This document shows, in pieces, positions 16,480 through 36,926 of a stretch of DNA of 64,000 bases. Both the position numbers and the translations under genes were made by a program. The stretch comes from Spirochaetaceae bacterium (GTDB lineage: Bacteria > Spirochaetota > Spirochaetia > Treponematales > Breznakiellaceae): NCBI GenBank assembly GCA_031283025.1, contig JAITCP010000157.1, forward strand, positions 3,175 to 67,174, written 5' to 3'. Position 1 is the first letter of the stretch. Every line of letters begins with the position of its first letter. Below the pieces are notes generated by a model. That model had not been told where the DNA came from and did no database searches. It saw nothing but the letters and a program-made list of their open reading frames with translations.

Positions 16480-16491
16480 AGGAGGAACTAG

Positions 16492-18711
16492 ATGAAGAAT
16501 AAGACTTTTATTGCGCTGTTTACAGCGCTCTTGGCAGTCGTACTGGTACTGTCCGGCTGTAGTGCTTTTTCCGGTCCTGCAGCCCCTGCGGGCGACGGTG
16601 GTACGCTTGCTCTGACGGTAAAGGGTGTCGGCGCAGGCGGACGCACCATTATGCCGGAGTTAACCTACAAGGCGACGATAACCCCAGCGGGAGATGACGC
16701 GGTGGCTATTGACAAAACTCTGGTTGCGGGCGTGAACATCATTAAATTGGAACCGGGAACTTACGGAATCGTTGTAAAAGCTTACAACGGCGAAGTACTG
16801 GTCGCTCAGGGTTCCAAAACCGGTGTAGTAGTAACCGCAGAAGCGGCAGCCTCGGCAGAGATAACGCTTACGGCAGAAACGCTTACCGGCAAAGGAACCT
16901 TTGCGTGGGACCTTTCCCTATTCTCCGACGCTGAAGTAGCGGCCATTGCGATCTTTAAGCTTACAGACGTTGATCTTGATACCTTCGAATTCTTTGATGA
17001 GTTTGAAGATGCGGATGAACTAATTGCAATAGCGGGAAAAGATGAAATTCCCGTTACTGATCCCACAACCCTTGTAGAGAAAGGCTTTGTAGATTCAATC
17101 GAGCTTGATGCGGAAGAATATCTGGTTTATTTCTTTGTTCAGAATGACGCAGAAGAGGACGACCCCACTGTATGGTCAGAAGTCCTGCGTATCTATGCGG
17201 GTCTTAAAAGCTCCTACCAGCCTTCCTTTGAGAACATCTTTGGCGGCGAAGGTAAAGAGCTTGAGGACCTTATCATCGCCGCAATCGCCGAAGGCGATTA
17301 CGACATTACCGCGCCTGAATTAACCGCTATTGGCGTAGCAGGCGTTAGCGCGGGCAACATCAACGACATAAAGACTAACATTGGCTTAATTCTTGCGGCA
17401 GCCGGTAACGAAGCCCCGGAAGACCTTGACGGCCTGAAAGAGCTTGTTGACGCTGCGCTGGTTATGGCCGGAGCCGTCGGCGTTGATCCTGCCAGTCCTA
17501 TCAAGGATACAGAAATTGCAGACCTTGCCGCAAACGATTCGGATGTAGATGTTGATTGGGATGATTGGGATGAACCTGACTATGAGGTAACCATAACCGT
17601 TGGCGCGTATGAGTTCACCGTATCAATCCTTCCGATTGCGGAACCTGAATTCCTTGAAAGCTTGGAAATTGCTCAGGTTGTTCCGGTCTACAGGTTTGCC
17701 CTGCCCTCAGGCGAAACGTACGGGAATTATAAGGCCATTAAAATAACCGTCAAGGATGCCGACCCCACTGCCAATATCCGTTTTGTCAGGCTTATGGGTA
17801 ATTACAGCGCGTCGGATTTTGCTTGGAATGCAGGATCTGGTGTTTTGGTGGCTGACTTTAACAGCGGCAAAAATGCTGAATTCATCTATGATGATATTGG
17901 CGCAGGCGCCATTACCGCCGCAGGCGGAGCAGCGGACACCTGGTATACCCTGACCTTCCGGCTGGTAGGCAATAGCCCGAACGGAAGCTTTGTCGCTGCC
18001 AATAAGCCGGCGGATAGCGCTACCGGGCCCTTCTACTTCGGTGTCGGCGTGCCTGGCAATGACAATTCTATCAAAACCGAACTGATCAAAAACATCACCA
18101 TGGTGCACAAAGCTGATCCGAAGAAGAATGTGGTGCTTGATGAATTGGATTTCTTTGGGTTTGCCGGGTATCCAATCGCAACCAGTTTAGGCCTGTCCAG
18201 CCGCAGTGTCGTAGCAAATGATGATTATGACGACCCTGCCAGTGTTACACTCCAGTTGGATTTAACTAAATTTTTGGATGATGGTACGGTGCTCAATGGA
18301 AGCGCGCATCTGGATGCCACTACTGAGGTTGGGAAGCTTATTGCGGAATTCACCAAGGGTAATTCAAGGGCATGTGTAGAGATTGGTGAAACCCAAGTTA
18401 CCCAAATAATGGCCGCAAAGTCTCTGAAGATATACGTTGATGCATCAAGCACCGATACTACTTCTAACTTTAGGTATCATTTAGGCAATCCGGTTCCTTC
18501 CGGTGGCTGGAATGGTTCCGCTTCGTTTGGTGGTGCCCCGTTCTATTCGGTGATTTATGGAGGAAAGGCAGTAGGATTCCAGGGCGACCCGAATCATATA
18601 GCTGCAAATTTCGGGTACTTCATACTGCAATACCAGGGTGGTGATGTGGCTGACGGCGAAGATCCTGTTACTGTTACCATTAAGTCCATCAAGATTAAGC
18701 TTATTAACTAA
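16492..18711 (+). CDS. Large surface lipoprotein with acidic central region and CBM-like modules
   Basis: ORF track 739 aa. Lipobox MKNKTFIALFTALLAVVLVLSGCS, GAGGAGG RBS. Module YRFALPSGETYGNYKAIKITV..VRLMGNY..WYTLTFRLVGNSP..FYFGVGVPGNDNSIKTELIKNITMV parallels YKFTLPEGKVWSDY..VRMMGNY..WYKYTYRIDGNTSP..LFMFGIGISGQNNDQNGTVSYIKNVTLV in the upstream protein. Confidence 0.8.
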   Translation: MKNKTFIALFTALLAVVLVLSGCSAFSGPAAPAGDGGTLALTVKGVGAGGRTIMPELTYKATITPAGDDAVAIDKTLVAGVNIIKLEPGTYGIVVKAYNGEVLVAQGSKTGVVVTAEAAASAEITLTAETLTGKGTFAWDLSLFSDAEVAAIAIFKLTDVDLDTFEFFDEFEDADELIAIAGKDEIPVTDPTTLVEKGFVDSIELDAEEYLVYFFVQNDAEEDDPTVWSEVLRIYAGLKSSYQPSFENIFGGEGKELEDLIIAAIAEGDYDITAPELTAIGVAGVSAGNINDIKTNIGLILAAAGNEAPEDLDGLKELVDAALVMAGAVGVDPASPIKDTEIADLAANDSDVDVDWDDWDEPDYEVTITVGAYEFTVSILPIAEPEFLESLEIAQVVPVYRFALPSGETYGNYKAIKITVKDADPTANIRFVRLMGNYSASDFAWNAGSGVLVADFNSGKNAEFIYDDIGAGAITAAGGAADTWYTLTFRLVGNSPNGSFVAANKPADSATGPFYFGVGVPGNDNSIKTELIKNITMVHKADPKKNVVLDELDFFGFAGYPIATSLGLSSRSVVANDDYDDPASVTLQLDLTKFLDDGTVLNGSAHLDATTEVGKLIAEFTKGNSRACVEIGETQVTQIMAAKSLKIYVDASSTDTTSNFRYHLGNPVPSGGWNGSASFGGAPFYSVIYGGKAVGFQGDPNHIAANFGYFILQYQGGDVADGEDPVTVTIKSIKIKLIN

Positions 18712-18960: not shown

Positions 18961-19050
18961 TCTTCTTTGCCGGTAATTCGTGTCATTCGTTGACTTTTCT
19001 TTGAGTAACGCCCGTTGGGCAGTTTAATTTTCTATTTTAAGGAGACCTAT

Positions 19051-21642
19051 ATGTCAAGCAAGAAATGTTTATTGGCAATGTTCTGTGCGGTACTGGCGTT
19101 GGCGCTTGCCGCGTGTGAACTTGGCGGTTCGGAAGAAGCCATAAAACCGCTCACCCTGCCGTATATAAGCATACACCCCCAAAGTCATTCGTATTATAAC
19201 GCGGCCTATGCAAATAACTCCGCTTATGTGTACCCCGGTACGCCGCCAACCCTGGGAGTGGAAATTTGGGACTGGCAGGGAAATGACGGCTCGCTCAGCT
19301 ATCAATGGTATACCTTTACCGACATCGAAGATTACTGCGAAAACGGCGGCAGGGCAATACCGGGCGCGACAAGCGGCACCTACACCCCTCCAATTTCTTC
19401 AACTGCAAACGGCACAAAATACTACTATTATGTTACTGTTACCAATTCAAAGTCGGATGTTCTGGGTGATCAAAAAGAAGCTTCGTTAACAAGCGAAGTA
19501 GCGGTTATCTCCTTTAGCAATCCCGGCCAGCCCCTTGCGCCTATACTTTCCAGAAGCCCGTCCGATGCCCGTTATGCCTGGGGCGCGGCGTTTAACCCCA
19601 TGCAGTTGAAAGCCGCAATACAGGATTCCGGTACCATTAGCTATCAATGGTACAGCAACAAGGCCTATAAGGTGGATTTTGACAGCGATACCACTACGGC
19701 GGCAGCTGTGAACATGGGCACTCAGGCATCCCTTATGCCGGATGTTGACGACCTTGATATGGGCGATAATTTCTATTTTGCCGTTGTTACCAATACCATT
19801 GGCAGCAACCGGTCTCAGACCATTACCATCCCGGCAAAGATAGAAATAGTACCGGGTAAAAGGGCGGCAGCTCCCCGTATTACCACACAGCCAACGGACA
19901 AACTGTACTTTACCGGAGATGTGATTGAGGCATTAACGGCGGAAGCGGAATCCCTTGATCGCGGCGCCATTACGTATCAATGGTATTCAAATGACGTGGC
20001 CGCCGTTAATTCCGGCACACGCCAGCCAATTGCAGGCGCAACTAACAAGAATTATACGCCGGATATAAACACAGGTTCGGCGGCGGGGCCGTTCTATTAC
20101 TATGTCGTTGCTACCAATACCAACGAAAATGTAATCGAAGAAACAACCGCCACAACGGCCAGCAAGCCGGTAAAGGTACGTGTAGCCGCTCCCGGAACAG
20201 AAGACTACAATATATCTTTTACCATTCCCGATCCTTCCCTTCCGGCAAACAGGTTCCAGTACGTCCGGGGTTACGGCGGCATGGACGTTGCCTGGGGCAA
20301 CTTCCCCCTGACAGATACGGATGATACCGAGTTGATGTATGACCCGGAACGCCTGGGCTACAATATGCTGCGGATTATGATAAAGGCGGATTATTTAGAC
20401 CCTGAAGAAACGATAAATATGCTCCTGGGTAGTGATCGCCCCTATTATTACGAAAATGTAAGAATTGTCAATAAATACGGCGGCTATGTGGCGGCAAGCC
20501 CTTGGACTCCCCCCAAAAACTGGAAGAGCAATAACTCGATAAACGGCGGCGGCATTTTAATACCCGCATACTACAAACTCTTTGCTACCTATCTGCGTAA
20601 CTTTGCCCAGATTATGTACGATAACGGAGCGCCGATTTATTGTATTTCCATTTCCAACGAACCAAACTATGTCGCCGGTTACGACGGCTGTGAATGGACT
20701 CCTAACGAAATGAGGGACTTCTACCTTGAATGTGGCCACTTTACAGACGGCGTGCGCGGCTGGGGCGGCGGCAAAGAAACCCCCTACGTCCTTACGATGA
20801 ACGGCGAATCGGCCAATACGCCCAATATCAACCTTGCCGCTCTTCAAAATCCAAAGTCCAAAGCGGCAATAGACGTTCTTGCCCGTCATATTTACGGTTC
20901 CCGTAAAGTAAGCCTCTGGAATGAAAACAAACAGCATATTACCAAAAAAGACGCAGAGGGCAACGACGTAATGATGGAAGTCTGGATGACGGAACATAAC
21001 ATCAACAGCTCCAACGCCACCGGTTACTACAACGATTCAAAGTGGCCCTATGTATGGCGCTACCTGAACGACGTAGACCTGGTAATGCGCATAAACAACG
21101 AAAACGCCTTTGTCTGGTGGGCTTCCAAGCGCTTCTATTCCATGGTAGGAGACGGCCAGTTTGGCGCTCCGAACCACACGCCGCTTCCCCGCGGCTGGGC
21201 GCTTACCCATTATTCGCGTTATACCATCGACCATACCCGTGTTGCGGTTAATTTGAACGGTACTGGTAATACAACAGGTAATGGAACTCCCGTACCCAAT
21301 ATTGATTGGACTACATCTGTTGTTAATAACAGTGAAGACAACATGGACAATCCTTCCCCCAGAATCACGGCCTTTGCCGCCCCGGACGGAAATTCAATCA
21401 GCGTGGTTCTGTTTACCCCCACTTCGGTTGAAGGTGCAGGCGGTTATGGCGGCTTTGGAACCATGGAGATTAACCTTCCGTTCGCGGTAAGCGGCGTAGT
21501 GGCGCACAAATCGTATGCGATTAATGCCACTACCAATTCTCTTTTCCAGCCGTTTGAGGAAATTACCCTCAGTGCAGATAGAAGAAAGGCGTATATTACT
21601 ATGCCGCAAAGCCAGATTATATCGGTAAGGTTTACCAAATAG
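19051..21642 (+). CDS. Lipoprotein glycoside hydrolase family 30 (glucuronoxylanase-like) with N-terminal Ig-like 'SYQWY' repeats
   Basis: ORF-track ORF 19015..21642. ATG 19051 follows AAGGAG. Lipobox MSSKKCLLAMFCAVLALALAAC. Repeats contain LSYQWYTF / ISYQWYSN / ITYQWYSN...YYYVVATN. GH30 core: RGYGGMDVAWGNF..YNMLRIMI..ASPWTPPKNWKSN..YCISISNEPNY..EVWMTEHN..FVWWASKRFYSMVG. Confidence 0.85.
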   Translation: MSSKKCLLAMFCAVLALALAACELGGSEEAIKPLTLPYISIHPQSHSYYNAAYANNSAYVYPGTPPTLGVEIWDWQGNDGSLSYQWYTFTDIEDYCENGGRAIPGATSGTYTPPISSTANGTKYYYYVTVTNSKSDVLGDQKEASLTSEVAVISFSNPGQPLAPILSRSPSDARYAWGAAFNPMQLKAAIQDSGTISYQWYSNKAYKVDFDSDTTTAAAVNMGTQASLMPDVDDLDMGDNFYFAVVTNTIGSNRSQTITIPAKIEIVPGKRAAAPRITTQPTDKLYFTGDVIEALTAEAESLDRGAITYQWYSNDVAAVNSGTRQPIAGATNKNYTPDINTGSAAGPFYYYVVATNTNENVIEETTATTASKPVKVRVAAPGTEDYNISFTIPDPSLPANRFQYVRGYGGMDVAWGNFPLTDTDDTELMYDPERLGYNMLRIMIKADYLDPEETINMLLGSDRPYYYENVRIVNKYGGYVAASPWTPPKNWKSNNSINGGGILIPAYYKLFATYLRNFAQIMYDNGAPIYCISISNEPNYVAGYDGCEWTPNEMRDFYLECGHFTDGVRGWGGGKETPYVLTMNGESANTPNINLAALQNPKSKAAIDVLARHIYGSRKVSLWNENKQHITKKDAEGNDVMMEVWMTEHNINSSNATGYYNDSKWPYVWRYLNDVDLVMRINNENAFVWWASKRFYSMVGDGQFGAPNHTPLPRGWALTHYSRYTIDHTRVAVNLNGTGNTTGNGTPVPNIDWTTSVVNNSEDNMDNPSPRITAFAAPDGNSISVVLFTPTSVEGAGGYGGFGTMEINLPFAVSGVVAHKSYAINATTNSLFQPFEEITLSADRRKAYITMPQSQIISVRFTK

Positions 21643-21651
21643 GAGCGCCGG

Positions 21652-22851
21652 ATGAAGAAAAAGTGGAATGAGGAATTAGAAATGAGGAGTAAGAGAACGG
21701 TTATTGCGTTATTCGTCATTGTTCTGAGCGCCGCATTATCCGTGGGTGCCTTTGCCCAGGAATTAAAAATTTCCGGTGAGGCAAAGAGCGGTATCTTATG
21801 GCAGCAAACCCAAAAGGAAGCCACCGATCCGGAAGCTAATGTTACTCTGGGAAATAAAGATGACGCGGGCGGCGGACGGGGCCGTGTCCGCATCAATCTG
21901 GACTATGACAATGGCAATAACTTTGGCATGAGGGCGCGTATTAACTGGGAAAACTGGAGCGATACCCAGCCTCAGTGGTCCTATGCCTTTGGCTACGGCG
22001 ATTTTTTTGACAACCAGATGACCGTATCGGTCGGCAAACTGGGGGCCTCGCCCTGGGGAACCGGCGGGCCGGAAATGTGGAAAGAACTGGAAGCGGCATC
22101 CGGCGGCGGCATGAGAACCGAATGGAAGCCGGCGTTTATTCCCGGCCTGAACGCGGGTTTTGTACTGAGCTATTTTAACCAGGACCGCGACCAGGGCTGG
22201 GATGCTAACAAACCGCTCTCGCTGTTGAACATTTTGCGGGAATCGGTTGTCGGCATATCGTATGCCCACGATCTGTTTTTAGTCCGTTTTGCCTACCGTT
22301 TTGACGATGCATTTGATGCGACGCAGGAAAACAAAAACCGCGGCGGTCTGGGTGAAGACGAGTTGATTTACCGTGTTGAGGAACGGGTATTAAAGAATTA
22401 CCTGCCCGGCTTCCAGATTTGGGCGCTTGGCTACTGGTTTGGCGTAACGTCCGAATATCCGGAGATGAAGCTGTTCCAGAACTGGCTTTTTGTCCAGTAC
22501 GCGCCGGAACAGTTTACAGCTCAGGTTCGCTTTGGCTACGACTATATCGAAAGCCGCAGCGATTTTTATGTAAAACCGTCTTTTTACTGGAACTTATTTG
22601 AAAAGTTACTCAGCATAGGTACGTCGTTCACGTACTGCCAGGATTTTGGCATAGGCAAAGTGTATGAAGGTTCTCCTTACCGGTATCTGGAAGTTGAACC
22701 AAAAATACAGCTTAACTTTACATCCTCATATATAGCCTTTGTATATTACTTTAAGCAGGAATATGTGGGCCGTTGGACGGGACTGCCCGATAGCTCATTG
22801 CCTCTACAGCAAACGCAGTGGATGAATCTGCGTTTCTGCATTTATTTCTAG
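21652..22851 (+). CDS. Putative outer-membrane beta-barrel protein (OMP-1), paralog of 35604..36926
   Basis: ORF track 399 aa. Signal RSKRTVIALFVIVLSAALSVGAFAQ. Alternating beta-strand-like sequence. C-terminal MNLRFCIYF ends in Phe. Starts 9 nt after the GH30 gene. Clear paralogy to the second OMP (ISGEAK(S/T)G(I/F)LW.., FGY..F.DQ(M/L)T(V/F)S(V/I)GKLG(A/S)SPWGTGGPE(M/K)WKELE). Confidence 0.7.
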   Translation: MKKKWNEELEMRSKRTVIALFVIVLSAALSVGAFAQELKISGEAKSGILWQQTQKEATDPEANVTLGNKDDAGGGRGRVRINLDYDNGNNFGMRARINWENWSDTQPQWSYAFGYGDFFDNQMTVSVGKLGASPWGTGGPEMWKELEAASGGGMRTEWKPAFIPGLNAGFVLSYFNQDRDQGWDANKPLSLLNILRESVVGISYAHDLFLVRFAYRFDDAFDATQENKNRGGLGEDELIYRVEERVLKNYLPGFQIWALGYWFGVTSEYPEMKLFQNWLFVQYAPEQFTAQVRFGYDYIESRSDFYVKPSFYWNLFEKLLSIGTSFTYCQDFGIGKVYEGSPYRYLEVEPKIQLNFTSSYIAFVYYFKQEYVGRWTGLPDSSLPLQQTQWMNLRFCIYF

Positions 22852-25129: not shown

Positions 25130-25183
25130 GCAGGGAAATTGTGCTATAGGGCCTGCGTGTGCGGGCCCGTCCAACTGACAGTA

Positions 25184-25228
25184 AATGGGCTGTTTAACCA
25201 CTAAAAGTGGTTAAACAGCCCATTTTTG
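25184..25228 (+). terminator. Strong rho-independent terminator after gene 22862..25129
   Basis: aatgggctgtttaaccac taaaa gtggttaaacagcccatt, a perfect 18-bp stem, followed by tttg. Confidence 0.85.
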
Positions 25229-25264
25229 TCTGCGCCAGTCCACAGGCGGCAACTTGGCGGGGAG

Positions 25265-25290
25265 GGGGAAAGGGGGGGAAATGCCGTTAT
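25265..25290. repeat. G-rich direct repeat, left copy (GGGGAAAGGGGGGGAA + TGCCGTTAT)
   Basis: Matches ggggaaagggggga at 26621-26634 and tgccgttat at 26687-26695. Confidence 0.5.
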
Positions 25291-25507
25291 TAAACGGTTT
25301 TTTAGCGAAATTAGCCCAAATTCTTGTATTTTTAACAGAAATTTCCCGAAATTTATTTGTTTTTTACAATAATTATACGAAAACTACTTGCGGATTTACT
25401 ATTATTGATATATAAATAATATATAGAAGATTTTCCTAAACTTAAGTACCTTCGGTACCCGGGTTTTGGAAAAGCCTCTATAAACAAGGCTTTAAGGAGT
25501 AATTAAC

Positions 25508-25714
25508 ATGGTGGGAGTAAGCTCTTCAAAGGCGAAAACGAAGAAGCAATTCGATGCTATTCGTAAACGTGCCGAAAAACTTGGCGTATTGGATATTAGT
25601 TTTAGCAGGGCTAATTCTTCTCCCGATGTTTTGGAGTGTTATAACCGTACGCTTGATGTTATTGAAAAAAATAAAGCAATTCTCTATCAAAATGCCGGTG
25701 AAACCGAGAAATAA
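25508..25714 (+). CDS. Small hypothetical protein (68 aa) in AT-rich island
   Basis: ORF track 68 aa: MVGVSSSKAKTKKQFDAIRKRAEKLGVLDISFSRANSSPDVLECYNRTLDVIEKNKAILYQNAGETEK. AAGGAG lies 8 nt upstream. The next gene starts 5 nt after its stop. Confidence 0.6.
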   Translation: MVGVSSSKAKTKKQFDAIRKRAEKLGVLDISFSRANSSPDVLECYNRTLDVIEKNKAILYQNAGETEK

Positions 25715-25719
25715 ATATC

Positions 25720-26466
25720 ATGGAGATCGGTTATACCCTGTGGACTATGCAGGATATCTTAAAAAGCATACCTTTTGACAAGCCTGCGGGGAAAACCGTT
25801 CATTTAGACTTTTCCAGGATGGAAGTTCCTTATTATGTAAAGAACTGGTTTAAAGTCTCCATTTTTTATGAAGACGACACGTTTCCGGTAGATGCAGTCT
25901 GTTCTATTTTTTCTCCTCAAGACACGGTTACCATTGTCATAGTAATTAAACGAAAATTTGAGGATGCGTTAAACAGATGGATAAAGAATAACGATGCTTC
26001 TATCCTTGATCTTTGTTATAGAAGAAGGGAGCTATATAGCCACGAAACTTCACATCTTATCGCAATTATCAGGTCGTATCCAAGCAATCGTTCTCAAAAG
26101 GTACGAAAGGATTTTGAAGCTAAAATAAGGAAAAAATTTTATGATTCTATCGGTACAGATCAAAGCATGATGGATTCAGGTTTTATTTCACAGGAAAAGC
26201 CTAATGATTCCCCTTCGGATTTTGAAAAAGACCATTTTTGTTATGAAAACGATAATTTGAACTATTTTAAGTTATATGCCGAATTGATGCTTCCTTATAA
26301 TACTCTATATGACTCACTAAAAAAGGTATGTAGTACCAAGAAACCTGGTGATTTTTTCTCTATTGGAGAAATCCTGGAAGGGACGCTTGTAGAGCCTTCA
26401 TTTTTTATAAAATTTCCCGACAAAGAATCCGAAATTAGAAGTATTCTGAAAGAAGGTTTTAATTAA
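25720..26466 (+). CDS. Putative HExxH metallopeptidase-like protein (ImmA/IrrE, M78-like motif)
   Basis: ORF track 248 aa. RRRELYSHETSHLIAII resembles the M78 signature (rr.F..aHElgHl). The rest of the protein is not recognisable. Confidence 0.55.
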   Translation: MEIGYTLWTMQDILKSIPFDKPAGKTVHLDFSRMEVPYYVKNWFKVSIFYEDDTFPVDAVCSIFSPQDTVTIVIVIKRKFEDALNRWIKNNDASILDLCYRRRELYSHETSHLIAIIRSYPSNRSQKVRKDFEAKIRKKFYDSIGTDQSMMDSGFISQEKPNDSPSDFEKDHFCYENDNLNYFKLYAELMLPYNTLYDSLKKVCSTKKPGDFFSIGEILEGTLVEPSFFIKFPDKESEIRSILKEGFN

Positions 26467-26516
26467 GCTGATTCCTGTTTCCGCCTGACTCCTGTTTTCC
26501 GGACTTCCTTCCCTTT

Positions 26517-26581
26517 TTTGAAGTTTGTATAGCACAGGCGCAGTACTACCTGCCCGATGGTAAAAGGAACCATGGCGGCTA
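26517..26581 (+). pseudogene. Remnant of a paralog of the C-terminal domain of gene 22862..25129
   Basis: gcacaggcgcagtactacctgcccgatgg (26532-26560) vs gcccaggcccaatacttccttcccgatgg (24731-24759): 24/29 identical. Four of the five differences are synonymous in the AQAQY(Y/F)LPDG frame. The fragment then ends at a TAA. Confidence 0.4.
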
Positions 26582-26591
26582 AACCTTGCGA

Positions 26592-26618
26592 GCCGTCCCT
26601 TCGGGGGCGGCTTTTTTG
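26592..26618 (+). terminator. Rho-independent terminator
   Basis: gccgtccc ttcg ggggcggc followed by ttttttg. Confidence 0.7.
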
Positions 26619-26620
26619 TC

Positions 26621-26695
26621 GGGGAAAGGGGGGATTGATTATTAATAAAAAGTATCGTTTCCGGTTTCAGGAAAAACGCGGTACATTGCCGTTAT
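26621..26695. repeat. G-rich direct repeat, right copy (split by ~52 nt)
   Basis: ggggaaagggggga (26621-26634) ... tgccgttat (26687-26695). See left copy at 25265-25290. Confidence 0.5.
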
Positions 26696-26700
26696 ATTGC

Positions 26701-27294
26701 CTAAAGAGCGCAACAGTCTTTCACATTGGGCAGCCTTGTATGGTTCTTAAAATAATCGTAATCGCTGGTAACCTTATCTTTGACATAGAAAAACTTCTTG
26801 GCTTTTTTCTTGAGTAAGTTTGTTTTTTTTATGTATATACCCAAATATTCGGGATGATCTTTTGTTTGGGGAATTTTAATTTCCTCAATTTCATTTTTGT
26901 TGGCAATCATGTATGCGTTGAATACTCTTTGAATACATATTTGCTGTTTATGGTCCAAGCCGCAATTTTTTGAAAAAAAGTTTTTTTTCGTTGTAAAGGA
27001 ATCAGAAAGAATATCAAGCTGGTTTTTAGCAAGTGCTGTTATATGATTTATATTACATCCTTCTTTATCACAACAGGGAATATCCGGAAACTGATTGCAG
27101 TTAATAAAAAATAATACTTTTTTTTCATTTTTTAAAAGGTCTTTGGTTTTTTCATCTTCAAAAACCCCGTTGGGGCCGGTAAACGCCCCGTTCTTATAAA
27201 GATCGATAATTGAAAGCACGATTTTTTCGCAAAAAGTATCGGTAATATGCGAAAGAAACTTATCGTTCCCTGTCTCAAGAAAAACGCAGCACAT
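26701..27294 (-). CDS. Hypothetical Cys-rich protein (197 aa), second gene of island operon
   Basis: ORF track 197 aa: MCCVFLETGNDKFLSHITDTFCEKIV...INCNQFPDIPCCDKEGCNINH...DCCAL. Starts 1 nt after the stop of 27296..28012. No family recognised. Confidence 0.6.
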   Translation of the reverse strand: MCCVFLETGNDKFLSHITDTFCEKIVLSIIDLYKNGAFTGPNGVFEDEKTKDLLKNEKKVLFFINCNQFPDIPCCDKEGCNINHITALAKNQLDILSDSFTTKKNFFSKNCGLDHKQQICIQRVFNAYMIANKNEIEEIKIPQTKDHPEYLGIYIKKTNLLKKKAKKFFYVKDKVTSDYDYFKNHTRLPNVKDCCAL

Positions 27295-27295
27295 T

Positions 27296-28012
27296 TTACA
27301 GTTTACCTTTAATTATCTTGTTAAAAAAGCGCAGTAATCCAGCTTTTGATTTTCCTTTTTTATATGGAATCTTGTCAAGATCAAGGAACATATTAAGGCG
27401 AAACCAGGTACTCTCTGTGTGAGGGAACTCGTAAAAAAGATATTTATCTTCTACAAGCACAAAATGAATAGGCCTGCGCTTTTCTGTATTAAAGGATAGT
27501 TTTCTGTCAAGAAATCTGGATATGCCAATCATGTTGGGTTCGGTTTCATTTGCCTGCGTAATAGCCTGTACCACAGCCTTTTTTCCGCATAAATATAACA
27601 GGATGGAAATTACCGTTTCCCGTAGATTGGGATTGGACCGCCAGAAAGAACCGGATACCAGGGTGATTTTTTTACCTTTGCAGTCATAGTCGGAGGAATT
27701 CAGGTTCTGCAGGAATTCAAGCAGGGACGAACCGCCGTAACGGCTCAGATCGAAAATATAGTGCATGTGCATATTGTCCCTTTGTTCCCATATCCAGTCT
27801 TCCTCGCCATTGATAAAGCTAAAAAACGTTAAAAATGCCTTGTACTGGGAGGGGCCGGGCGAACTTATGCCCCTGTATTTTGGTTCGTCCTCAAGCTTCA
27901 TTTCCCCCCTTTTTAGGGCCAAATAATTCTCTTTGAAGCCTTCCCACAGCTCAGGAATCAGTTCTTGTGCATCTTCAGGATCCCTTTTGGGAGCAATGCT
28001 GTTACATTCCAT
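27296..28012 (-). CDS. Hypothetical protein (238 aa), first gene of island operon
   Basis: ORF track 238 aa. No family recognised. Sigma70-like promoter immediately upstream (see promoter feature) with only ~11 nt between the -10 box and the ATG. Confidence 0.6.
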   Translation of the reverse strand: MECNSIAPKRDPEDAQELIPELWEGFKENYLALKRGEMKLEDEPKYRGISSPGPSQYKAFLTFFSFINGEEDWIWEQRDNMHMHYIFDLSRYGGSSLLEFLQNLNSSDYDCKGKKITLVSGSFWRSNPNLRETVISILLYLCGKKAVVQAITQANETEPNMIGISRFLDRKLSFNTEKRRPIHFVLVEDKYLFYEFPHTESTWFRLNMFLDLDKIPYKKGKSKAGLLRFFNKIIKGKL

Positions 28013-28023
28013 TTATAAGTGAG

Positions 28024-28052
28024 ATTTTACTAAAATTTACCCTGTTTTGCAA
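28024..28052 (-). promoter_or_regulatory. Sigma70-like promoter of the 27296..28012 / 26701..27294 operon
   Basis: On the minus strand: TTGCAA (28052-28047), a 17-nt spacer, then TAAAAT (28029-24). The ATG at 28012 is only 11 nt beyond the -10 box and no SD is present, so the leader is very short or absent. Confidence 0.55.
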
Positions 28053-28204
28053 GAGGATTTTACAAAATCATTGAATTTTTTTTCCAAAATGCCCCAAAAG
28101 GGTGCCAAGCGCCATTTAGTCGAGTGAAATTTCCCCTCTGTTATATACCTAATTCAAGATATTGTATATTCTTTAGCGCCTGGAATAGGGGTACTTTGAA
28201 CCCA

Positions 28205-30679
28205 ATGCGATTATTTTTGAACAAAATCGGTAATTGTGTTCTAATCGTGGCAATCATTACAATCGAAGGTTTGTTCACCCTTACCTGTAAATCGGAAACG
28301 CCGGATGTCAACAGTTCCGCCGCCGATCTGTTTGAGGTAAGCATAGGGACTGAAAAAATAATCAACATAAGGCTGGGCGCTGATTCTGAGCAATGGGAGC
28401 GCCCTGCTTTTAATATCAGAACCATGCGGACTATGGATATTGAACTGGAAGGTGCGGCGCTGTCCAACGCCCAGGTCCGGTTAAATGTCAGCCAACGGGC
28501 AAAAGCCCGGTTTGCCCGCGCTTCTGACGAAGCCAAGCCCGATACCTTTTCAACTGAGGCAACATGGACATTCGCCCCTAACGATTACCTCTATATTATG
28601 ATTACCAGCGGAGACAACAGTAATGTTAACTATTACCGGGTAAGGGTTGTTTCAAAAGATGCCGATGTCCGGCTTGCCGCGCTTAGAATCAACAGCGCTT
28701 TGGCTGTGCTTGGCCTCCCCGGGAAAACGGCGGCGGAGGCTGTGCAGGGTTCTATTACGGTTAAAACCCTGTCAAATACCGGCACTGTTACCGGTGCGCC
28801 GATTATCGCTGTTAAACGAGGCGCAACAGCCCAGGCGGCCTTTGCCGTTGGCTCATCACCAACAGAGGAACAATTCAGTACGGTTGTTCCCGCCGCATTA
28901 TCAACCAACAATGTTCTGTGGGTAAAAGTTACCGCAGGTCAAGCGCTGTACTATTACCAGGTAATAATAACCATAAGATACGATGCCGGTTTTGGTTTTG
29001 GCGAGAGTGATACCGAATGGAACGATGATGCCTATAACGCGAATTACCGCCGCTTCCCCAATGCCCCTATTAACGGTATTCTTGAATACCCTTGGGGCAG
29101 CGGCACGGATAATTATTTTGATACAAACGCGCCGCCTTCATACTGGAACGGCAAGGGACACAACCACAAATACCCGGACTTGTTCCACTTTGCCAACGGC
29201 AACGCGGTTAAAAACATTGCCGATTGGGAAAACCGCCGTAAAGAAATCTTTAACATTCTTCAATACTATATGCACGGACGTATGCCGTCGATTGAACCCG
29301 ACGTATTGGAGATTGAATGGGCTGATACCGGTAATACCTGCTCCATCAGCCTGACGCATTTAGCAAGCGGTAGAACAGCCGCGATAAATGTTACCCATAC
29401 TCCGCCTTCGGGCGCTGTTAAAGACGCAAAGGACAGAATCCTGTGCTTTGGCGTGGGCGGCGCGCCGGGCGGTTCCCGGCCCGGTTGGGGTACCGGTAAT
29501 TTTAACACGGCTTGGGGCGGCTCTGAAGGCGACAGAAGCGGAACCTGCGCAGCCCTGTACGGCCTGAACGTCAGCGCTAAAGATACCCCGTCTGTGAACA
29601 TGGAATACGCGTGGGCCATGAGTGTCATTTTGACGGTACTTGAAGAAGGCGGCTTGAACGGCTACTACAATCCCGCCAAAGTCGGCATTTACGGTTTTTC
29701 ACGTTATGGTAAAGCCGCCCTGTGTATCAGCGCGTTTGCCCAGGGCCGTAGCGGCAGCCAGGTAGGTATAACCTTTGTCGGTTCTTCCGGCTCAGGCGGC
29801 GCCGCGATTGACCGCTGGATTGCGCCGATGGCTTACAAAGATTTTGCAGAAGACCCGCTTCCCGTTGACGGTGTTGGCGCAAGAGCAAGGGCCGATCTAA
29901 AGGGAACAAAGTGGTTTTACAATAAAATCGAAGACGATCATAACGCGGCAACTGCAATCCGGGCAGTCCGGGGTTGGGCGGCAAATACGCCCGGTATTCC
30001 CGCAGGTTCGCACATTTACGGCGAATATGATCCCGGTATTGCGGGAAGTTTTACGCGGACAATGATGGGCGAGGGGGACTGGAATCAGATACAGCCTTTA
30101 GCGCAGTCGCGTGGTGAAACAAGCGGCTGGTTTAACGCGCGTTTTTCGGATTTACAGGACTTGCACACAGGGCTTGCTTTGGACAGAGACAATCAGGCCG
30201 GCGTTTTGTGCACCATGCCCTTCGACGCGCATTTTATCGCCGCCCTGGTTGCCCCGCGCATTATCTATTATCAGGACGGCTACGACTGCCTTAGAACCAA
30301 TCCGGAAAGCCAATGGGCCGCCTGGCTTATGTGCGATGAAATCTACCAGATGTACGCGGAGGAACTCGGCGATCCGCTCATTATCTGGCGGAACGCTGTC
30401 AAAATGTACAATATTGGACATATGCATTATGACTACCAGAATCAGGATGAATACGATCTGGTGGAAGCGCTCTATTCAGGCCGGCAGCCCAATGAAAAAT
30501 TCCGCACGCCGCAGTTCCCCGTTGACGATCCGCGCTACCGCTGGGACTTTAACCGTGTTGACTGGGGCCGCCCAAACCACCCAACCATTGCCGAGCGCGT
30601 CAGGCTGATGCGTGAAAGCCCGTACAAAGTTAAACCCTTAAGTCTTAAGGGATTATTAGATACACCGGAACGACTTTAA
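28205..30679 (+). CDS. Lipoprotein carbohydrate esterase family 15 (4-O-methyl-glucuronoyl methylesterase-like) with N-terminal cadherin-like domains
   Basis: ORF-track ORF 28124..30679 (GTG). I prefer ATG 28205 (MRLFLNKIGNCVLIVAIITIEGLFTLTC). Domain ends YLYIMITSGDNSNVNYYRVRVV and VLWVKVTAGQALYYYQVIITI. CE15-like: WENRRKEIFNILQYYMHGRMP and nucleophile motif IYGFSRYGKAAL (G-x-S-R-x-G). Confidence 0.75.
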   Translation: MRLFLNKIGNCVLIVAIITIEGLFTLTCKSETPDVNSSAADLFEVSIGTEKIINIRLGADSEQWERPAFNIRTMRTMDIELEGAALSNAQVRLNVSQRAKARFARASDEAKPDTFSTEATWTFAPNDYLYIMITSGDNSNVNYYRVRVVSKDADVRLAALRINSALAVLGLPGKTAAEAVQGSITVKTLSNTGTVTGAPIIAVKRGATAQAAFAVGSSPTEEQFSTVVPAALSTNNVLWVKVTAGQALYYYQVIITIRYDAGFGFGESDTEWNDDAYNANYRRFPNAPINGILEYPWGSGTDNYFDTNAPPSYWNGKGHNHKYPDLFHFANGNAVKNIADWENRRKEIFNILQYYMHGRMPSIEPDVLEIEWADTGNTCSISLTHLASGRTAAINVTHTPPSGAVKDAKDRILCFGVGGAPGGSRPGWGTGNFNTAWGGSEGDRSGTCAALYGLNVSAKDTPSVNMEYAWAMSVILTVLEEGGLNGYYNPAKVGIYGFSRYGKAALCISAFAQGRSGSQVGITFVGSSGSGGAAIDRWIAPMAYKDFAEDPLPVDGVGARARADLKGTKWFYNKIEDDHNAATAIRAVRGWAANTPGIPAGSHIYGEYDPGIAGSFTRTMMGEGDWNQIQPLAQSRGETSGWFNARFSDLQDLHTGLALDRDNQAGVLCTMPFDAHFIAALVAPRIIYYQDGYDCLRTNPESQWAAWLMCDEIYQMYAEELGDPLIIWRNAVKMYNIGHMHYDYQNQDEYDLVEALYSGRQPNEKFRTPQFPVDDPRYRWDFNRVDWGRPNHPTIAERVRLMRESPYKVKPLSLKGLLDTPERL

Positions 30680-33365: not shown

Positions 33366-35513
33366 ATGACTAAAAAAATAACAAGAAGCTTGTTGGCAGG
33401 TTTTGCCGGCGTTATGATGGCGTTTTGCCTGTTAACCTGCGGTGAGATGGGGTATAAGCAGCAGGAAGTCCTTGCGGTAGGAGACGCGCAGGAGCCGTCT
33501 ATCAGCGTACAGCCTGTAGGCGGCGTGTATACGTTGGGGAGTACGATCGCTCCTTTATCGGTAACCGCGGCGGTAACCGACGGCGGCTCGTTATCGTATC
33601 AATGGTATGATGCCACGCCCGCGGAATGGCAGGAAGGAACAGGAACGCTTTTAGGAACGGGACCATCATATCAGCCTGCTGCCGCCGGAGAGGGTGTTTA
33701 CCAAATTTATGTTTTAATTACCAATACCAATAACAAGGTACAGGGCGGAACCACCACATCGGCCAAAAGCAATTTGGTAAAGGTTACTATTAATGACGCT
33801 TCCAACGCCCTTTACCCGAACATTACCGCCGAACCGGAAAACGGTCTTTATGAATGGGCGAGCGGTTTGGAGGTAGAAGCTATACCGGTAACCGCGGCGG
33901 TGTCTGACGGCGGTTCGCTGTCGTACCAGTGGTACTCTGTCGCTTCATACACCAATGAAGACGGCACCGCGATAAACGGCGCAAGCTCGGCTAGTTTCCG
34001 GCCAACCATTACCGCGGCGGGAACCTATTACTATTATGTCGTTGTTACCAATACCAATAACAGCGCTTCCGGGCGGAAAATGTCACCAATAGCAAGCAAC
34101 CCCGTTATTGTACAGGCGCTGACGCCCAATTCGACCATTACCGTAAATACAGCGGCAAAGTACCAGTATGTTCGCGGGTTTGGCGGTATGGCGGTTCCTT
34201 GGGGGAATTTCCCGCAGGACTACATGGACGACTACGAAAGAATGTTCAACCCCGATACCGGTCTTGGCTACAACATGCTGCGGATTATGATTCCGTGCAG
34301 CGACACGGACATTGAGACGGGACTACAGCAGTATATCCTGGGCGATACAACCGGCGACAAAGACCGGTCGCACTATTATGAAATGGTAAAACTGGTAAAC
34401 CGGTACGGCGGCTATGTACTGGCAAGCCCTTGGTCCCCGCCCGCAGAATGGAAAACAAACGGTTCCACCGTCGGCGGCCAGGGGGGACAGGCCGCAAAAC
34501 TGATAAAGAGTTATTATAACGACTACGCCGACTACCTTAAAAAATACTGCCAGATAATGGCAAGAAACGGCGCCCCCATCTACGCGGTTTCCATTCAAAA
34601 CGAGCCCAACTATGCGGCAAATTATGACGGCTGCGAGTGGGATGGCACTGAAACGCGTGATTTTATTAAACAGGTCGGCCAATTTACCGCAGGAGTAAAA
34701 GGCTGGGGCGGCGGCGCGGAAATTCCCAGAGTCCTTATCATGAACGGCGAATCGGCAAATACCCCGTCTTTTAACAACCCGGTATTGAATGATCCGGAGG
34801 CGCGGAATTTGATTGATCTGCTTGCCCGCCATAATTACGGCAACAGTAATGAAAATATCTGGACCACGGCAAGCCAGTATGGCAAAGAAGTCTGGATGAC
34901 CGAACATAACCTTAATGCGGGAACCCCAATAGGCTATGTTGACGATTCAACGTATAACTACGTCTGGAAATTTATGAACGATGTAGACTGGACGCTACGG
35001 GTTAACAACGAAAACGCCTTCGTCTGGTGGGCGTTAAAACGTTTCTACAGCATGATAGGGGACGGCACGGAGGGTACGGTAGACGGCGCAATTCTGCCGC
35101 GCGGCTACGGCCTTGCCCATTACGCGAAATACGCGGCCGGCATGACCCGTATAGGCGTAACCGCAGCCGGCACGACGGCAAGCGGAACCGCTTTGAGCGC
35201 CGGTAATATTAACAACACGTCTCATAGTTATGACAGTACAGCCGCAAAAGTAACCGCCTATGTATCACAGGACGGCAATACCATTTCACTGGTTATGTTT
35301 ACTCCGACAAATATTGGCGCGGGCGGCGTAAATTTGGGAACCGTTAAAATACAGTTGCCGGACGGTTTTACTGTTACCAACGCGACGGCGGTGCGGACAA
35401 CGCGCAGCGCTTTTTTAAGGGCGGAAAGCGTTTCTGTTTTGACGAATAAAAATGCCGCTTTTGTTGAGCTTCCGGTGGGACAAATCGTTTCGATTAAATT
35501 TACCAAAAACTAG
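33366..35513 (+). CDS. Lipoprotein glycoside hydrolase family 30 (second copy) with two Ig-like SYQWY repeats
   Basis: ORF track 715 aa. AAGGAGG RBS. Lipobox AGVMMAFCLLTCG. LSYQWYDA, LSYQWYSV..YYYYVVVTN. GH30 core: RGFGGMAVPWGNF..YNMLRIMI..ASPWSPPAEWKTN..YAVSIQNEPNY..EVWMTEHN..FVWWALKRFYSMIG. Confidence 0.85.
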   Translation: MTKKITRSLLAGFAGVMMAFCLLTCGEMGYKQQEVLAVGDAQEPSISVQPVGGVYTLGSTIAPLSVTAAVTDGGSLSYQWYDATPAEWQEGTGTLLGTGPSYQPAAAGEGVYQIYVLITNTNNKVQGGTTTSAKSNLVKVTINDASNALYPNITAEPENGLYEWASGLEVEAIPVTAAVSDGGSLSYQWYSVASYTNEDGTAINGASSASFRPTITAAGTYYYYVVVTNTNNSASGRKMSPIASNPVIVQALTPNSTITVNTAAKYQYVRGFGGMAVPWGNFPQDYMDDYERMFNPDTGLGYNMLRIMIPCSDTDIETGLQQYILGDTTGDKDRSHYYEMVKLVNRYGGYVLASPWSPPAEWKTNGSTVGGQGGQAAKLIKSYYNDYADYLKKYCQIMARNGAPIYAVSIQNEPNYAANYDGCEWDGTETRDFIKQVGQFTAGVKGWGGGAEIPRVLIMNGESANTPSFNNPVLNDPEARNLIDLLARHNYGNSNENIWTTASQYGKEVWMTEHNLNAGTPIGYVDDSTYNYVWKFMNDVDWTLRVNNENAFVWWALKRFYSMIGDGTEGTVDGAILPRGYGLAHYAKYAAGMTRIGVTAAGTTASGTALSAGNINNTSHSYDSTAAKVTAYVSQDGNTISLVMFTPTNIGAGGVNLGTVKIQLPDGFTVTNATAVRTTRSAFLRAESVSVLTNKNAAFVELPVGQIVSIKFTKN

Positions 35514-35514
35514 A

Positions 35515-35551
35515 GGGAACCTCTAAAAACTGAAGTTTTTAAGAGATTCCC
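35515..35551. repeat. AAAAC-loop-GTTTT hairpin element, subtype 2
   Basis: gggaacctctaaaaac tgaa gtttttaagagattccc, 2 nt after the GH30 stop. Confidence 0.8.
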
Positions 35552-35560
35552 TAGACTTTA

Positions 35561-35586
35561 GCCGGGCGCTATGCGCCCGGTCTTTT
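35561..35586 (+). terminator. GC-rich rho-independent terminator between GH30-2 and OMP-2
   Basis: gccgggcgc tat gcgcccggt followed by cttttc. The ORF-track ATG 35571 sits in its loop. Confidence 0.7.
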
Positions 35587-35603
35587 CCCACAGGAGGATT
35601 ACT

Positions 35604-36926
35604 TTGAAAAAAATTACCATTGGAAAATCTACCTTTCCAAAACTAACCGAGTTTTGGAAATGGCCCATTGCTCTTGGAGGATTTTCCAAAACTTCAGCTT
35701 TTGGAAAATCTACCTTAGATTTAAAGGAAAAACTGTCCTTTTGGACAGTTTTTCCAAAGCCATTTCCAAAACTAACCGAGTTTTGGAAATGGCCCATTGC
35801 TCTTTTACTTGCGGCGTTAACCTTTCCGGCTTTTTCCGGCGATTGGGAGATAAGCGGCGAGGCAAAAACCGGCTTTCTGTGGGAAAAGACCGAAAAAGTC
35901 GGAAAAGACCCGGAAGAAAAAGTACGGCTTGGCAGCCTTGACGACGCGGGAGACGATCAAGGGCGTTTCCGGCTTAATTTGGAATATACGGAAGGCAATG
36001 TAGGTTTTAAAATACGCATAGAATATGACAAATGGGCTGAGGGCGGCCCCAGCAAATGGCCGTGGTCTTATGCCTTTGGGTACGTCAACAGTTTTGAAGA
36101 CCAACTGACGTTTTCCATCGGCAAGCTTGGCTCATCCCCCTGGGGAACAGGCGGCCCTGAAAAATGGAAAGAGCTGGAAGTAATGGACAAGGGCGGCGGC
36201 GTGCGCGTTGAATATAAGCCCTACTACCTGCCCGGCTTAAACGTAGGCTTTGTCCTTAACTGGTTTAACGGCAGCAGTGATCGCGGATATAGCCGCAATC
36301 CTACCATATTGGACTTGCTGCAGGAATCAGTCCTTGGTGTGTCGTATGTGAATGATTATTTTCTATTCCGCTTTGCCTACCGTCTTGACAATGAGCTTGA
36401 CCAGCGTCCCGGCAGCGGTATTGTTGTTCCACGGGAAGGCGATGATCTCATTTACCGCATAGAAGAAAAGGTTTTGAACAATTACCTGAAAGGCTTAAAA
36501 ATTTGGGCGTTAGGCGTTTATGAAGGCGTAGGTTCCGAGGATGACAGTTGTATCCACTTTGAAAACTGGCTGTTTACCGAATTCGCCCCCGAATGGTTTA
36601 CCGCGCAAATCCGCTTTGGTTACGACGTTATTGCGACACGGAGCGTTGTGCACTTAAAACCCAGTTATTATCATCACTTTTTTGACAGATTTTTAACTCT
36701 GGGAGCGTCGTTCTTATGGGCGCAGGATTTTGGCGACTCCAAGGTATATCCCGGCTCTCCGTACTGGAAAATGGAGCTTGAACCAAAAGTCCAGCTTAAC
36801 TTTCAAAACGCCTACATCGCTTTTGTGTATATCATGAACAGGGAATACATACATGAAACCCCGTTAGCCGATCCCCCCATAAACCAAACGCAAAGAATGA
36901 ACCTGCGCTTTGGAATGTGGTTCTAG
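35604..36926 (+). CDS. Putative outer-membrane beta-barrel protein (OMP-2), with remodelled 5' end
   Basis: ORF-track ORF 35571..36926. The ATG at 35571 lies in the loop of a GC-rich terminator hairpin. In-frame TTG 35604 has AGGAGG 5 nt upstream. The mature part parallels OMP-1 (WEISGEAKTGFLWEKTEK...MNLRFGMWF). The N-terminal region contains an in-frame 129-nt duplication made of hairpin elements. Confidence 0.6.
   Translation: MKKITIGKSTFPKLTEFWKWPIALGGFSKTSAFGKSTLDLKEKLSFWTVFPKPFPKLTEFWKWPIALLLAALTFPAFSGDWEISGEAKTGFLWEKTEKVGKDPEEKVRLGSLDDAGDDQGRFRLNLEYTEGNVGFKIRIEYDKWAEGGPSKWPWSYAFGYVNSFEDQLTFSIGKLGSSPWGTGGPEKWKELEVMDKGGGVRVEYKPYYLPGLNVGFVLNWFNGSSDRGYSRNPTILDLLQESVLGVSYVNDYFLFRFAYRLDNELDQRPGSGIVVPREGDDLIYRIEEKVLNNYLKGLKIWALGVYEGVGSEDDSCIHFENWLFTEFAPEWFTAQIRFGYDVIATRSVVHLKPSYYHHFFDRFLTLGASFLWAQDFGDSKVYPGSPYWKMELEPKVQLNFQNAYIAFVYIMNREYIHETPLADPPINQTQRMNLRFGMWF
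35634..35675 (+). repeat. 42-nt direct repeat copy 1 (contains family hairpin tttccaaaac taaccga gttttggaaa)
   Basis: Identical to 35763-35804. Offset is 129 nt (43 codons, in frame). Confidence 0.9.
35680..35710. repeat. AAAAC-type hairpin element inside the OMP-2 5' coding region
   Basis: gattttccaaaa cttcagc ttttggaaaatc, perfect 12-bp stem. Confidence 0.8.
35726..35755. repeat. Perfect hairpin inside the OMP-2 5' coding region
   Basis: ggaaaaactgtcc tttt ggacagtttttcc, perfect 13-bp stem. Confidence 0.8.
35763..35804 (+). repeat. 42-nt direct repeat copy 2
   Basis: tttccaaaactaaccgagttttggaaatggcccattgctctt. Encodes FPKLTEFWKWPIAL, running directly into the hydrophobic signal-peptide core. 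Confidence 0.9.

Follow-up and report, generated by a model that had tools for sequence, protein, structure and literature searches.

The AT-rich island that splits the xylan-utilisation locus of a termite-gut spirochaete is best read as two separate two-gene cassettes, both horizontally mobile, which lie side by side as a mosaic and are probably conflict modules, not metabolic genes. The island occupies positions 25130–28123 of the window, that is, of the whole 64,000-nucleotide (nt) stretch analysed (contig JAITCP010000157.1 of assembly GCA_031283025.1). The source is a termite-gut metagenome-assembled genome (MAG) labelled Spirochaetaceae bacterium, in which the island has the locus tags LBB72_07845/50/55. 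The first cassette comprises gene A (25508–25714, plus strand, 68 amino acids (aa)) and gene B (25720–26466, plus strand, 248 aa), and the second comprises gene D (27296–28012, minus strand, 238 aa) and gene C (26701–27294, minus strand, 197 aa). The pairs converge, with gaps of 5 nt between A and B and 1 nt between D and C, as an earlier preliminary description of the window had reported.

Each pair is an obligate two-gene operon, and the two pairs are mutually independent. Exact look-up, together with pattern scans across genomes, metagenomes, and IMG/VR, yielded a set of 65 loci, given L numbers here, and hidden Markov models (HMMs) of the A, B, C, and D families were run on 56 loci and six more. 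Gene A stands directly upstream of B in every locus with upstream sequence (the short contig L022 begins inside B), and in nearly all loci that reach far enough past D, the next gene is C, either single or as two paralogues. Besides the window, L001 (JGI Ga0466718_132992) is the one locus where A-B and D-C co-occur, again at this site; of the contexts that include flanks, about 16 for A-B and about 13 for D-C, none contains the other pair. The four-gene island is thus a juxtaposition of two cassettes, and the single four-gene unit of the preliminary description has to be given up. The unit common to the A-B contexts is exactly the leader, A, and B (25479–26466), ending at the B stop codon. It has 83% nucleotide identity to L061, its closest outside relative, and 79% to L002. 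The conserved leader (25479–25507, plus strand) contains the Shine-Dalgarno sequence AAGGAG for gene A and forms the left end of the unit in all A-B cassettes; homology begins at 25479 against the prophage copy in L061 and at 25494 against L002. Two paralogous C genes after D are found in many loci, for example L005, L011, L034, L035, L038, and L052, and the D-C-D arrangements in L040 (103–1732) and L041 (465–2184) show that D-C cassettes can also be tandem.

The island is set apart from its surroundings by composition. Its G+C content, from windowed composition, is 38.1% compared with 48.3% for the whole window, and it is the lowest-G+C 3-kb stretch of the window, with a minimum of 0.371 at 25301, about 3.5 standard deviations below the 3-kb mean of 0.485 (standard deviation 0.032). 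The AT-rich interruption of the xylan locus claimed earlier is therefore present. The accompanying figure of about 30% G+C applies to the local minimum of 300-nt windows inside the island (0.30), but not to the island average. G+C at third codon positions is 0.33–0.47 in the four island genes and 0.50–0.58 in the flanking glycan genes. By raw tetranucleotide distance the island is the top outlier of the window (z 4.1–4.6), so both composition checks proposed earlier single it out. The tetranucleotide signal vanishes once base composition is corrected for, and the anomaly is thus essentially AT-richness.

Recent horizontal exchange of the island at the xylan locus is strongly supported by the comparison with L001. 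There, the same island lies between the orthologues of the upstream 755-aa gene and the downstream CE15 (glucuronoyl esterase) gene, and the flanking gene order is identical. The flanking locus is xylan-related, with CE15/GCE in the window and GH30 and CBM9 in the L001 orthologues. Amino-acid identities to L001 are 94, 93, 77, and 92% for A, B, C, and D, compared with 43–82% for the flanking proteins. Nei-Gojobori synonymous divergence (dS) from L001 is 0.15 for A, 0.08 for B, 0.34 for C, and 0.25 for D, compared with 0.88–2.24 for the seven flanking genes that serve as the yardstick, so that the island lies 3- to 25-fold below its flanks. Nucleotide identity rises with sharp edges from 55–75% in the flanks to 92–99% at 25494–26590 and 77–98% at 26700–27990, and unalignable sequence separates these two blocks. 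According to the preliminary description, conservation of the four genes at this position with normal composition would speak against acquisition. The same position is indeed kept in one relative, L001, but the island there is just as AT-rich, and its divergence is far below that of the flanks, so that positional conservation here argues for transfer. A chimeric assembly of L001 was considered as the cause of the high identity and rejected, since the islands are similar but not identical, the junctions lie in divergent sequence, and L001 has its own 88-nt repeat. As to a housekeeping yardstick, the gene order shared by the window and L001 goes no further than the second porin gene, and the window has no counterpart of the L001 CDP-alcohol phosphatidyltransferase.

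The edges of the cassettes bear scars of insertion. The left edge of the island is the intrinsic terminator of the upstream 755-aa gene (25183–25225, plus strand), which has a perfect 20-bp stem (100% complementary), a 3-nt loop, and a T run. This terminator is the window lineage's own and, except for the G-rich box (G-box), unrelated to the L001 type. The left G-rich box GGCGGGGAGGGGGAAAGGGGGGGAAATGCCGTTAT (25260–25290) follows, and high identity to L001 starts inside it, at 25265. Downstream of B, sequence comparison identifies a gene remnant of about 30 codons, FPPDSCFPDFLPFFEVCIAQAQYYLPDGK (26478–26565, plus strand), from the upstream 755/792-aa family; it is 64% identical to the 792-aa gene of L001 compared with 55% to the window's own 755-aa gene. 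Next comes a second terminator hairpin, GAGCCGTCCC-TTCG-GGGGCGGCTT with a T run (26590–26619, plus strand). This second terminator is a scar imported with the cassette, as shown by its 93% identity to the terminator region native to the 792-aa gene in L001. The right G-rich box GTCGGGGAAAGGGGGGATTG (26618–26637) is, on inspection, the counterpart of the left one. In L001, A-B is bracketed by an 88-nt direct repeat (87 of 88 positions identical) made up of the post-stop region of the 792-aa gene, its terminator, and the G-box. The right-hand copy in the window (26557–26630) is 93% identical to this repeat, whereas of att-like repeats the window keeps only the G-rich boxes. A last remnant, MYRVFPETGNDTF (26647–26689, minus strand), corresponds to the first 13 or so codons of a second C paralogue (C'), truncated beside the A-B insertion; it is 80% identical to the beginning of C and 84% to that of the second C gene in L005. 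The left terminator, the internal gene remnant, and the G-rich repeats around the left pair had all been noticed in the preliminary description, and each is found again here. The absence of an integrase or transposase also holds, with no match among the island open reading frames (ORFs) in Pfam, NCBIfam, PHROGs, or PADLOC; the 64-kb window was also scanned for Rfam families and tRNAs, and none was found.

The low dS of the island relative to its flanks and the L001-type terminator scar together indicate a recent exchange between lineages. The simplest local history that would fit these remnants has three steps. D-C-C' would first have been resident in the terminator-proximal gap of the xylan-utilisation locus. 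A-B would then have inserted in an L001-like lineage together with a duplicated 3' end and terminator of the upstream gene, destroying C'. Later, the window lineage would have acquired the block by a transfer whose left crossover fell at the G-box.

Beyond this locus, the cassettes are AT-richer than their surroundings in all loci measured, lying 4–17 G+C points under their flanks in 30 of 30 loci with at least 3 kb of flank, and they are recurrently associated with prophages. In L061, A-B is inside a prophage, between an HTH_26 gene and a GpA terminase gene, with portal, HNH, and integrase genes nearby. In L062 it adjoins the integrase of a 58-kb IMG/VR contig that has baseplate genes, and in L060 it stands at the edge of a RecT/SSB/Arc early region. 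D-C in L058/59 lies beside an element with integrase, terminase, portal, S78, and capsid genes, which is also in IMG/VR. Horizontal acquisition, as proposed in the preliminary description, is thus upheld by the synonymous divergence, by the insertion scars, and by the same cassettes in prophages elsewhere. Chromosomal settings are varied. A-B is found beside ribosomal/rpoBC and uxuA/TRAP genes (L008), beside a MacB-type ABC transporter (L002), and next to ComM-like and DUF711 genes. D-C comes after an HTH_19 gene and adjoins the his operon in L057, stands upstream of a pectate-lyase locus in L005, is near a RelB/HTH pair in L011, and elsewhere lies among RCC1-repeat, VWA/TPR, and methyltransferase genes.

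Some of these contexts have further features of their own. A cluster of ABC ATPase, MacB/FtsX permease, and DUF4418 genes adjoins A-B in L002 (8308–10615) and D-C in L048 (5774–8178), which may be a recurrent landing site or a coincidence. The his operon of L057 is interrupted by two PDDEXK_3 genes (4263–4691 and 8834–9217) adjoining the HTH_19-D-C-C unit. In L005 (1878–2304), small adjacent ORFs of 67 and 81 aa upstream of D-C-C have a common peptide motif, NLERMREDAYYNQAAA, which occurs twice in the second. A-B is also present on contigs binned as Proteiniphilum (L021, Bacteroidota; B 42% identical) and Fibrobacteria GUT31 (L023; 30%), both from termite gut. Taxon labels of MAG contigs may be wrong, and the two placements reflect either cross-phylum transfer in the gut community or mis-binning.

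All four genes are under purifying selection, with ratios of nonsynonymous to synonymous divergence of 0.17–0.39 against L001, and the families with conserved motifs number 45 (B), 27 (D), and more than 26 (C) members.

Protein D is the one with the clearest structural likeness. Its structure model has a predicted local distance difference test score (pLDDT) of 89.3 and a predicted template modelling score (pTM) of 0.89. The top 14 Foldseek matches in the PDB are all members of the phospholipase D (PLD) superfamily. Zucchini is the best (E 1e-3, probability 1.0, template modelling (TM) score by target 0.45–0.49), followed by NucT, PLDs, and vaccinia F13. The match covers residues of about 80–238, behind a helical N-terminal region. 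The Pfam model PLDc_2 gives a weak match in 4 of the 27 members of the D family (best E 0.073), none above the gathering score. A PLD alpha/beta fold is therefore predicted for D with moderate confidence, the Foldseek score being moderate, not overwhelming, and the Pfam matches sub-threshold. The four proteins had been described as lacking known domains. This is correct in that no database model matches them above threshold, but it does not extend to the predicted PLD-superfamily (Nuc/NucT/Zucchini-like) fold of D.

The D motif reads R179-x3-H183-[FY]-[IV]...E-F-P-H198-T-E200...R205, without the HKD lysine. His183 is invariant, and the position of the HxK lysine (+2) is Ile or Val in 27 of 27 aligned members; among the D-locus ORFs with the motif (n = 25), it is Ile, Leu, or Val. 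Asp is at +7 from His183 in 21 of 27 members. An invariant P-H-T-E stands where PLDs have GSxN, neither Arg179 nor Arg205 varies, and HxKxxxxD is absent from all 35 D ORFs. Judged by motif spacing, His183 would correspond to the HKD histidine. The identity of D as a canonical HKD nuclease was rejected since the lysine is absent. When the 27 D homologues were compared with PADLOC, just two stray matches (E about 0.03) were obtained.

Protein C gave three matches in a word-indexed search, and a profile search placed a C gene after almost every D. The protein is cysteine-rich. C66, C74, C80, Q92, and C194 are invariant in an alignment of 26 sequences, and the conservation of the cysteines suggests a four-cysteine metal site.

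Protein B has 45 homologues at 45–79% identity, all from Treponema MAGs or termite-gut metagenomes. The family is small, with 33 representatives in an exhaustive HMM search of 1.84 billion proteins, and its distant representatives have neither an informative domain nor an M78 match. Exact-sequence look-up of B and D as delimited here found neither on record, the deposited B beginning 9 codons later. An HExxH motif, HETSH at residues 108–112, has H108, E109, and H112 invariant in 38 aligned homologues and almost invariant in the family as a whole. It lies in the conserved block C-x-RRRELY-C-HExxH-LIAIIRAYPS, within a predicted helix (93–119). The AlphaFold2 model (pLDDT 84.9, pTM 0.86) comprises a four-strand sheet, a helix, and then the long HExxH helix, an order that is zincin-like. 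The peptidase reading of B draws on this motif and on the predicted order of the secondary structure. The last 50 or so residues, with the consensus ITxxDVAKETxVSKxFFDIFPEK, resemble a TetR-type helix-turn-helix (HTH), though not significantly (E 0.57). Foldseek gave no significant neighbour in the PDB (best E 0.19, TM at most 0.22); in BFVD the best match has E 0.023, and matches named SprT-like or IrrE are confined to E 0.16–0.7. B and the 38 homologues gave no M78 hit in Pfam even at E<=1, and the lone SprT-like match has E 0.17. The motif called M78-like in the preliminary description is thus real as an HExxH, whereas M78 membership was rejected, as neither the profile nor the structural comparison supported it. 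Echoes of M1/M49-type zinc peptidases are faint and non-significant (Foldseek of B to DPP III and EryP, E 0.3–1.2), and the same applies to the A profile against the last helices of ERAP1 (E 0.2).

The consensus of the A family is RFxAVRxRAExLGVLDINFS...LECYERTLDIIExNK. A matches no known family, and profile searches of its family found no XRE or HTH match. Comparison of B and D with GenBank phages by tblastn gave no match. Sequence-profile searches against the PDB, with whole families and with sub-domains (the B HExxH core, the D C-terminal domain, C, and A), produced chance-level matches only.

A-B and D-C are proposed to act as self-contained conflict modules, serving either prophage-borne phage exclusion or defence, or addiction. 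A defence or toxin-antitoxin label remains a reasonable hypothesis for them. In the D-C cassette, D would most likely be a dimeric PLD-type phosphodiesterase acting on nucleic acid via His183, with Arg179, His198, Glu200, and Arg205 substituting for the HKD lysine, while C would be a zinc-binding protein that restrains or targets D. In the A-B cassette, B would most likely be a zinc metallopeptidase-like DNA-binding protein that is gated by A or acts on A. The pair would be analogous to protease/regulator pairs of mobile elements, and like the M78 protease/repressor pairs without being a member of them. A more specific version takes both cassettes as undescribed anti-phage or anti-mobile-element systems on termite-gut prophages, with D a lysine-less PLD catalyst licensed by zinc-bearing C and B a novel HExxH-HTH metalloprotease controlled by A; we regard it as tentative, with a modest chance of being right in full.

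The closest known relatives in form differ from the cassettes in several respects. The predicted fold of D matches best, within the PDB, the PLD nucleases (Nuc, H. pylori NucT, and Zucchini/PLD6, as well as the PLD domains of BfiI, SauUSI, and END). In size D resembles those of them that have a single domain and function as dimers, and most of its family keeps the motif spacing H-x2-x4-D-x6-(4-residue motif). D differs in having Ile or Val at the HxK lysine, P-H-T-E in place of GSxN, the extra invariant Arg179 and Arg205, and an extra helical N-terminal region with an invariant PGPSQY. It also has an obligate cysteine-rich partner gene, which is not known for Nuc-type enzymes, and no Pfam PLDc model matches it above threshold. 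PLD nucleases are recurrent effectors of restriction and defence systems (PMC12191111).

The M78/COG2856 protease and repressor pairs, such as ImmA-ImmR of ICEBs1/TnSmu1 and IrrE-DdrO, likewise have an HExxH protein in a two-gene unit on mobile elements. CapP-CapH is another pair of an M78 metallopeptidase and a repressor. IrrE has an HTH motif after its peptidase domain, and B similarly has an apparent HTH-like segment; A-B, like these pairs, sometimes adjoins an integrase or HTH gene. In contrast to the M78 proteases, B has no M78 profile or structural match, has conserved cysteines (C99 and C107) around its motif, and belongs to a tiny family. Its partner A, encoded upstream, is a 68-aa protein and no XRE repressor, and L061 is the only context with an HTH_26 gene ahead of A-B. 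M78 protease/repressor pairs of mobile elements are described in PMC6868357, PMC12828697, and PMC10233336.

Prophages carry conflict modules in variable hotspots (PMC9122126). Like the moron-like cargo of P2/P4-type prophage and satellite hotspots (PMC9122126), the cassettes are small, self-contained, AT-rich operons that lie between phage modules or at prophage ends and are swapped among elements and chromosomes. Unlike such cargo, most A-B and D-C copies are chromosomal and outside recognisable prophages, and the hosts are uncultured termite-gut spirochaetes. The cassettes also have the layout of type II toxin-antitoxin systems, in that the genes of both pairs are adjacent, co-directional, and tightly coupled, an arrangement that is kept across loci. 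They share with these systems a two-gene, translationally coupled, mobile, and patchy character, but differ in the lack of a family match, in atypical sizes, in the duplicated C, and in the absence of a recognisable antitoxin DNA-binding domain. The cassettes are of a familiar kind, namely small phage-borne accessory cassettes, the one with a putative effector of PLD fold and the other with an HExxH protein, with unusual active-site features and a very narrow ecological distribution.

Several observations weigh against the conflict-module reading. D has no HxK lysine, which PLD nucleases need (PMC12191111), and D may thus be a pseudo-enzyme or a binding protein. A non-catalytic binding role is a serious alternative for D, because all the characterised PLD defence nucleases retain HxK, the lysine of which is described as essential (PMC12191111). 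B has no significant profile or structural match to any peptidase, and in the B gene of one Treponema MAG (L018, 507–1247) HETCR replaces HExxH, so that the second His is lost while the remainder is conserved, the explanation being either an error in sequencing or a naturally occurring inactive variant. A, B, C, D, and all their alignment members have nothing above threshold in Pfam, NCBIfam, PHROGs, or PADLOC, and PADLOC-DB v2 gave no match for the four proteins at E<=1. Most contexts are ordinary chromosomal genes, not prophages, and D-C stands beside large glycan loci in three contexts (window/L001, L005, and L032). Known defence genes are not conspicuously enriched among the annotatable neighbours, of which only the RelB/HTH pair and the PDDEXK_3 genes are of this kind. 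Lastly, the youth of the island is measured against the seven flanking genes.

Decayed prophage regulatory remnants offer one different explanation, in which A-B is a lysogeny-control pair in the manner of ImmA-ImmR or IrrE-DdrO and D-C a phage accessory pair, with no present role in defence or addiction. It would account for the position of A-B beside an integrase in L062 and directly after an HTH_26 gene in L061, for D-C after an HTH_19 gene in L057, and for the combination of HExxH with an HTH-like tail in B, and pairs of M78 protease and XRE repressor are common in mobile elements (PMC6868357, PMC10233336). It is nevertheless unlikely. The leader-A-B unit occurs with no other phage gene in at least 12 chromosomal contexts, and independent decay that each time left the same two genes is improbable. 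All four genes are intact as well as constrained, the two-gene unit has been kept at one site in two lineages and re-exchanged recently, and A is not an XRE or HTH protein.

About equally improbable is a role as plain toxin-antitoxin addiction modules, acting by post-segregational killing and not against phages. Tight two-gene coupling with gaps of 5 and 1 nt, patchy distribution over many contexts, low G+C, and mobility are all compatible with such modules, as are the pairing of D, of putative nuclease fold, with C and that of small A with larger B. However, the four proteins have no homology to toxin or antitoxin families in Pfam, NCBIfam, or PADLOC and are larger than is usual for type II components, a recognisable DNA-binding antitoxin domain is missing from both A and C, and the frequent duplication of C after D is an unusual layout.

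That the four genes are vertically inherited, lineage-specific regulators or accessory factors of the glycan locus, with intrinsic AT-richness and a low divergence due to constraint, is very improbable. Their conservation at the same position in L001, the adjacency of D-C to large glycan or surface-protein loci (window/L001, the pectate-lyase locus of L005, and L032), and the divergent orientation of D and the CE15 gene would fit this idea. Constraint on a protein, however, cannot reduce dS ten-fold, and insertion and replacement are evident from the truncated C' and from the imported terminator scar of L001 type. Profile searches found no CAZy, transport, or regulator domain, so that, as the preliminary description had expected, the genes are not placed in glycan-utilisation families. 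Most contexts are unrelated to glycans (ribosomal/rpoBC, ABC transporter, his operon, RCC1-repeat, prophages), and a glycan-locus role for the cassettes was rejected on this range.

A single four-gene system, with A-B regulating or cooperating with D-C, has a next to negligible chance, for although the window and L001 both keep the pairs next to each other in convergent orientation, each occurs elsewhere without the other, their divergence differs (dS 0.08–0.15 for A-B and 0.25–0.34 for D-C), unalignable scar sequence lies between them, and A-B came later, truncating C'.

If the conflict-module reading is correct, the cassettes would be two new conflict systems from the prophages of uncultured termite-gut spirochaetes, a virus-host setting that is barely explored. 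A PLD fold minus a supposedly essential lysine would underlie one, and an HExxH protein with a confidently predicted structure yet no structural neighbour the other. Whatever their function, the island is a clean and datable case of a 1–3 kb cassette crossing diverged lineages into a carbohydrate-utilisation locus, and its scars reveal the order of events and the donor lineage. It also calls for caution in genome scans, since an island that appears to be one set of operons may be two unrelated cassettes, and positional conservation in a relative does not exclude recent transfer.

To the right of D, an AT-rich intergenic region (28013–28123) lies between D and the CE15 gene, which are divergent, and contains promoter-like sites for D on the minus strand (TTGCAA-17-TAAAAT, 28052 to 28024). 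Promoter-like sites in the island are consensus matches only, and their count is not above that of shuffled sequence. The CE15 ORF is listed from a GTG at 28124, and an alternative ATG at 28205 gives MRLFLNKIGNCVLIVAIITIEGLFTLTC..., which resembles a signal or lipoprotein peptide (window 28124–28207). The L001 orthologue is shorter (826 compared with 851 aa), matching the later start, with which the intergenic region between D and CE15 would be about 190 nt instead of 111 nt.

In the glycan locus itself, the two halves contain paralogous genes (window 19015–22851 and 33366–36926, and also L001). The porin-like proteins of 399 and 451 aa are about 52% identical via their L001 counterparts, and the genes for 875 and 715 aa are about 39–40% identical. 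The locus thus has the look of an old tandem duplication, with the island inserted afterwards. The strongest tetranucleotide outlier after base-composition correction is the stretch 15001–17900 (correlation with the window 0.645, z −4.7), which falls within the genes for 870 and 739 aa of the glycan locus; internal repeats could be the cause.

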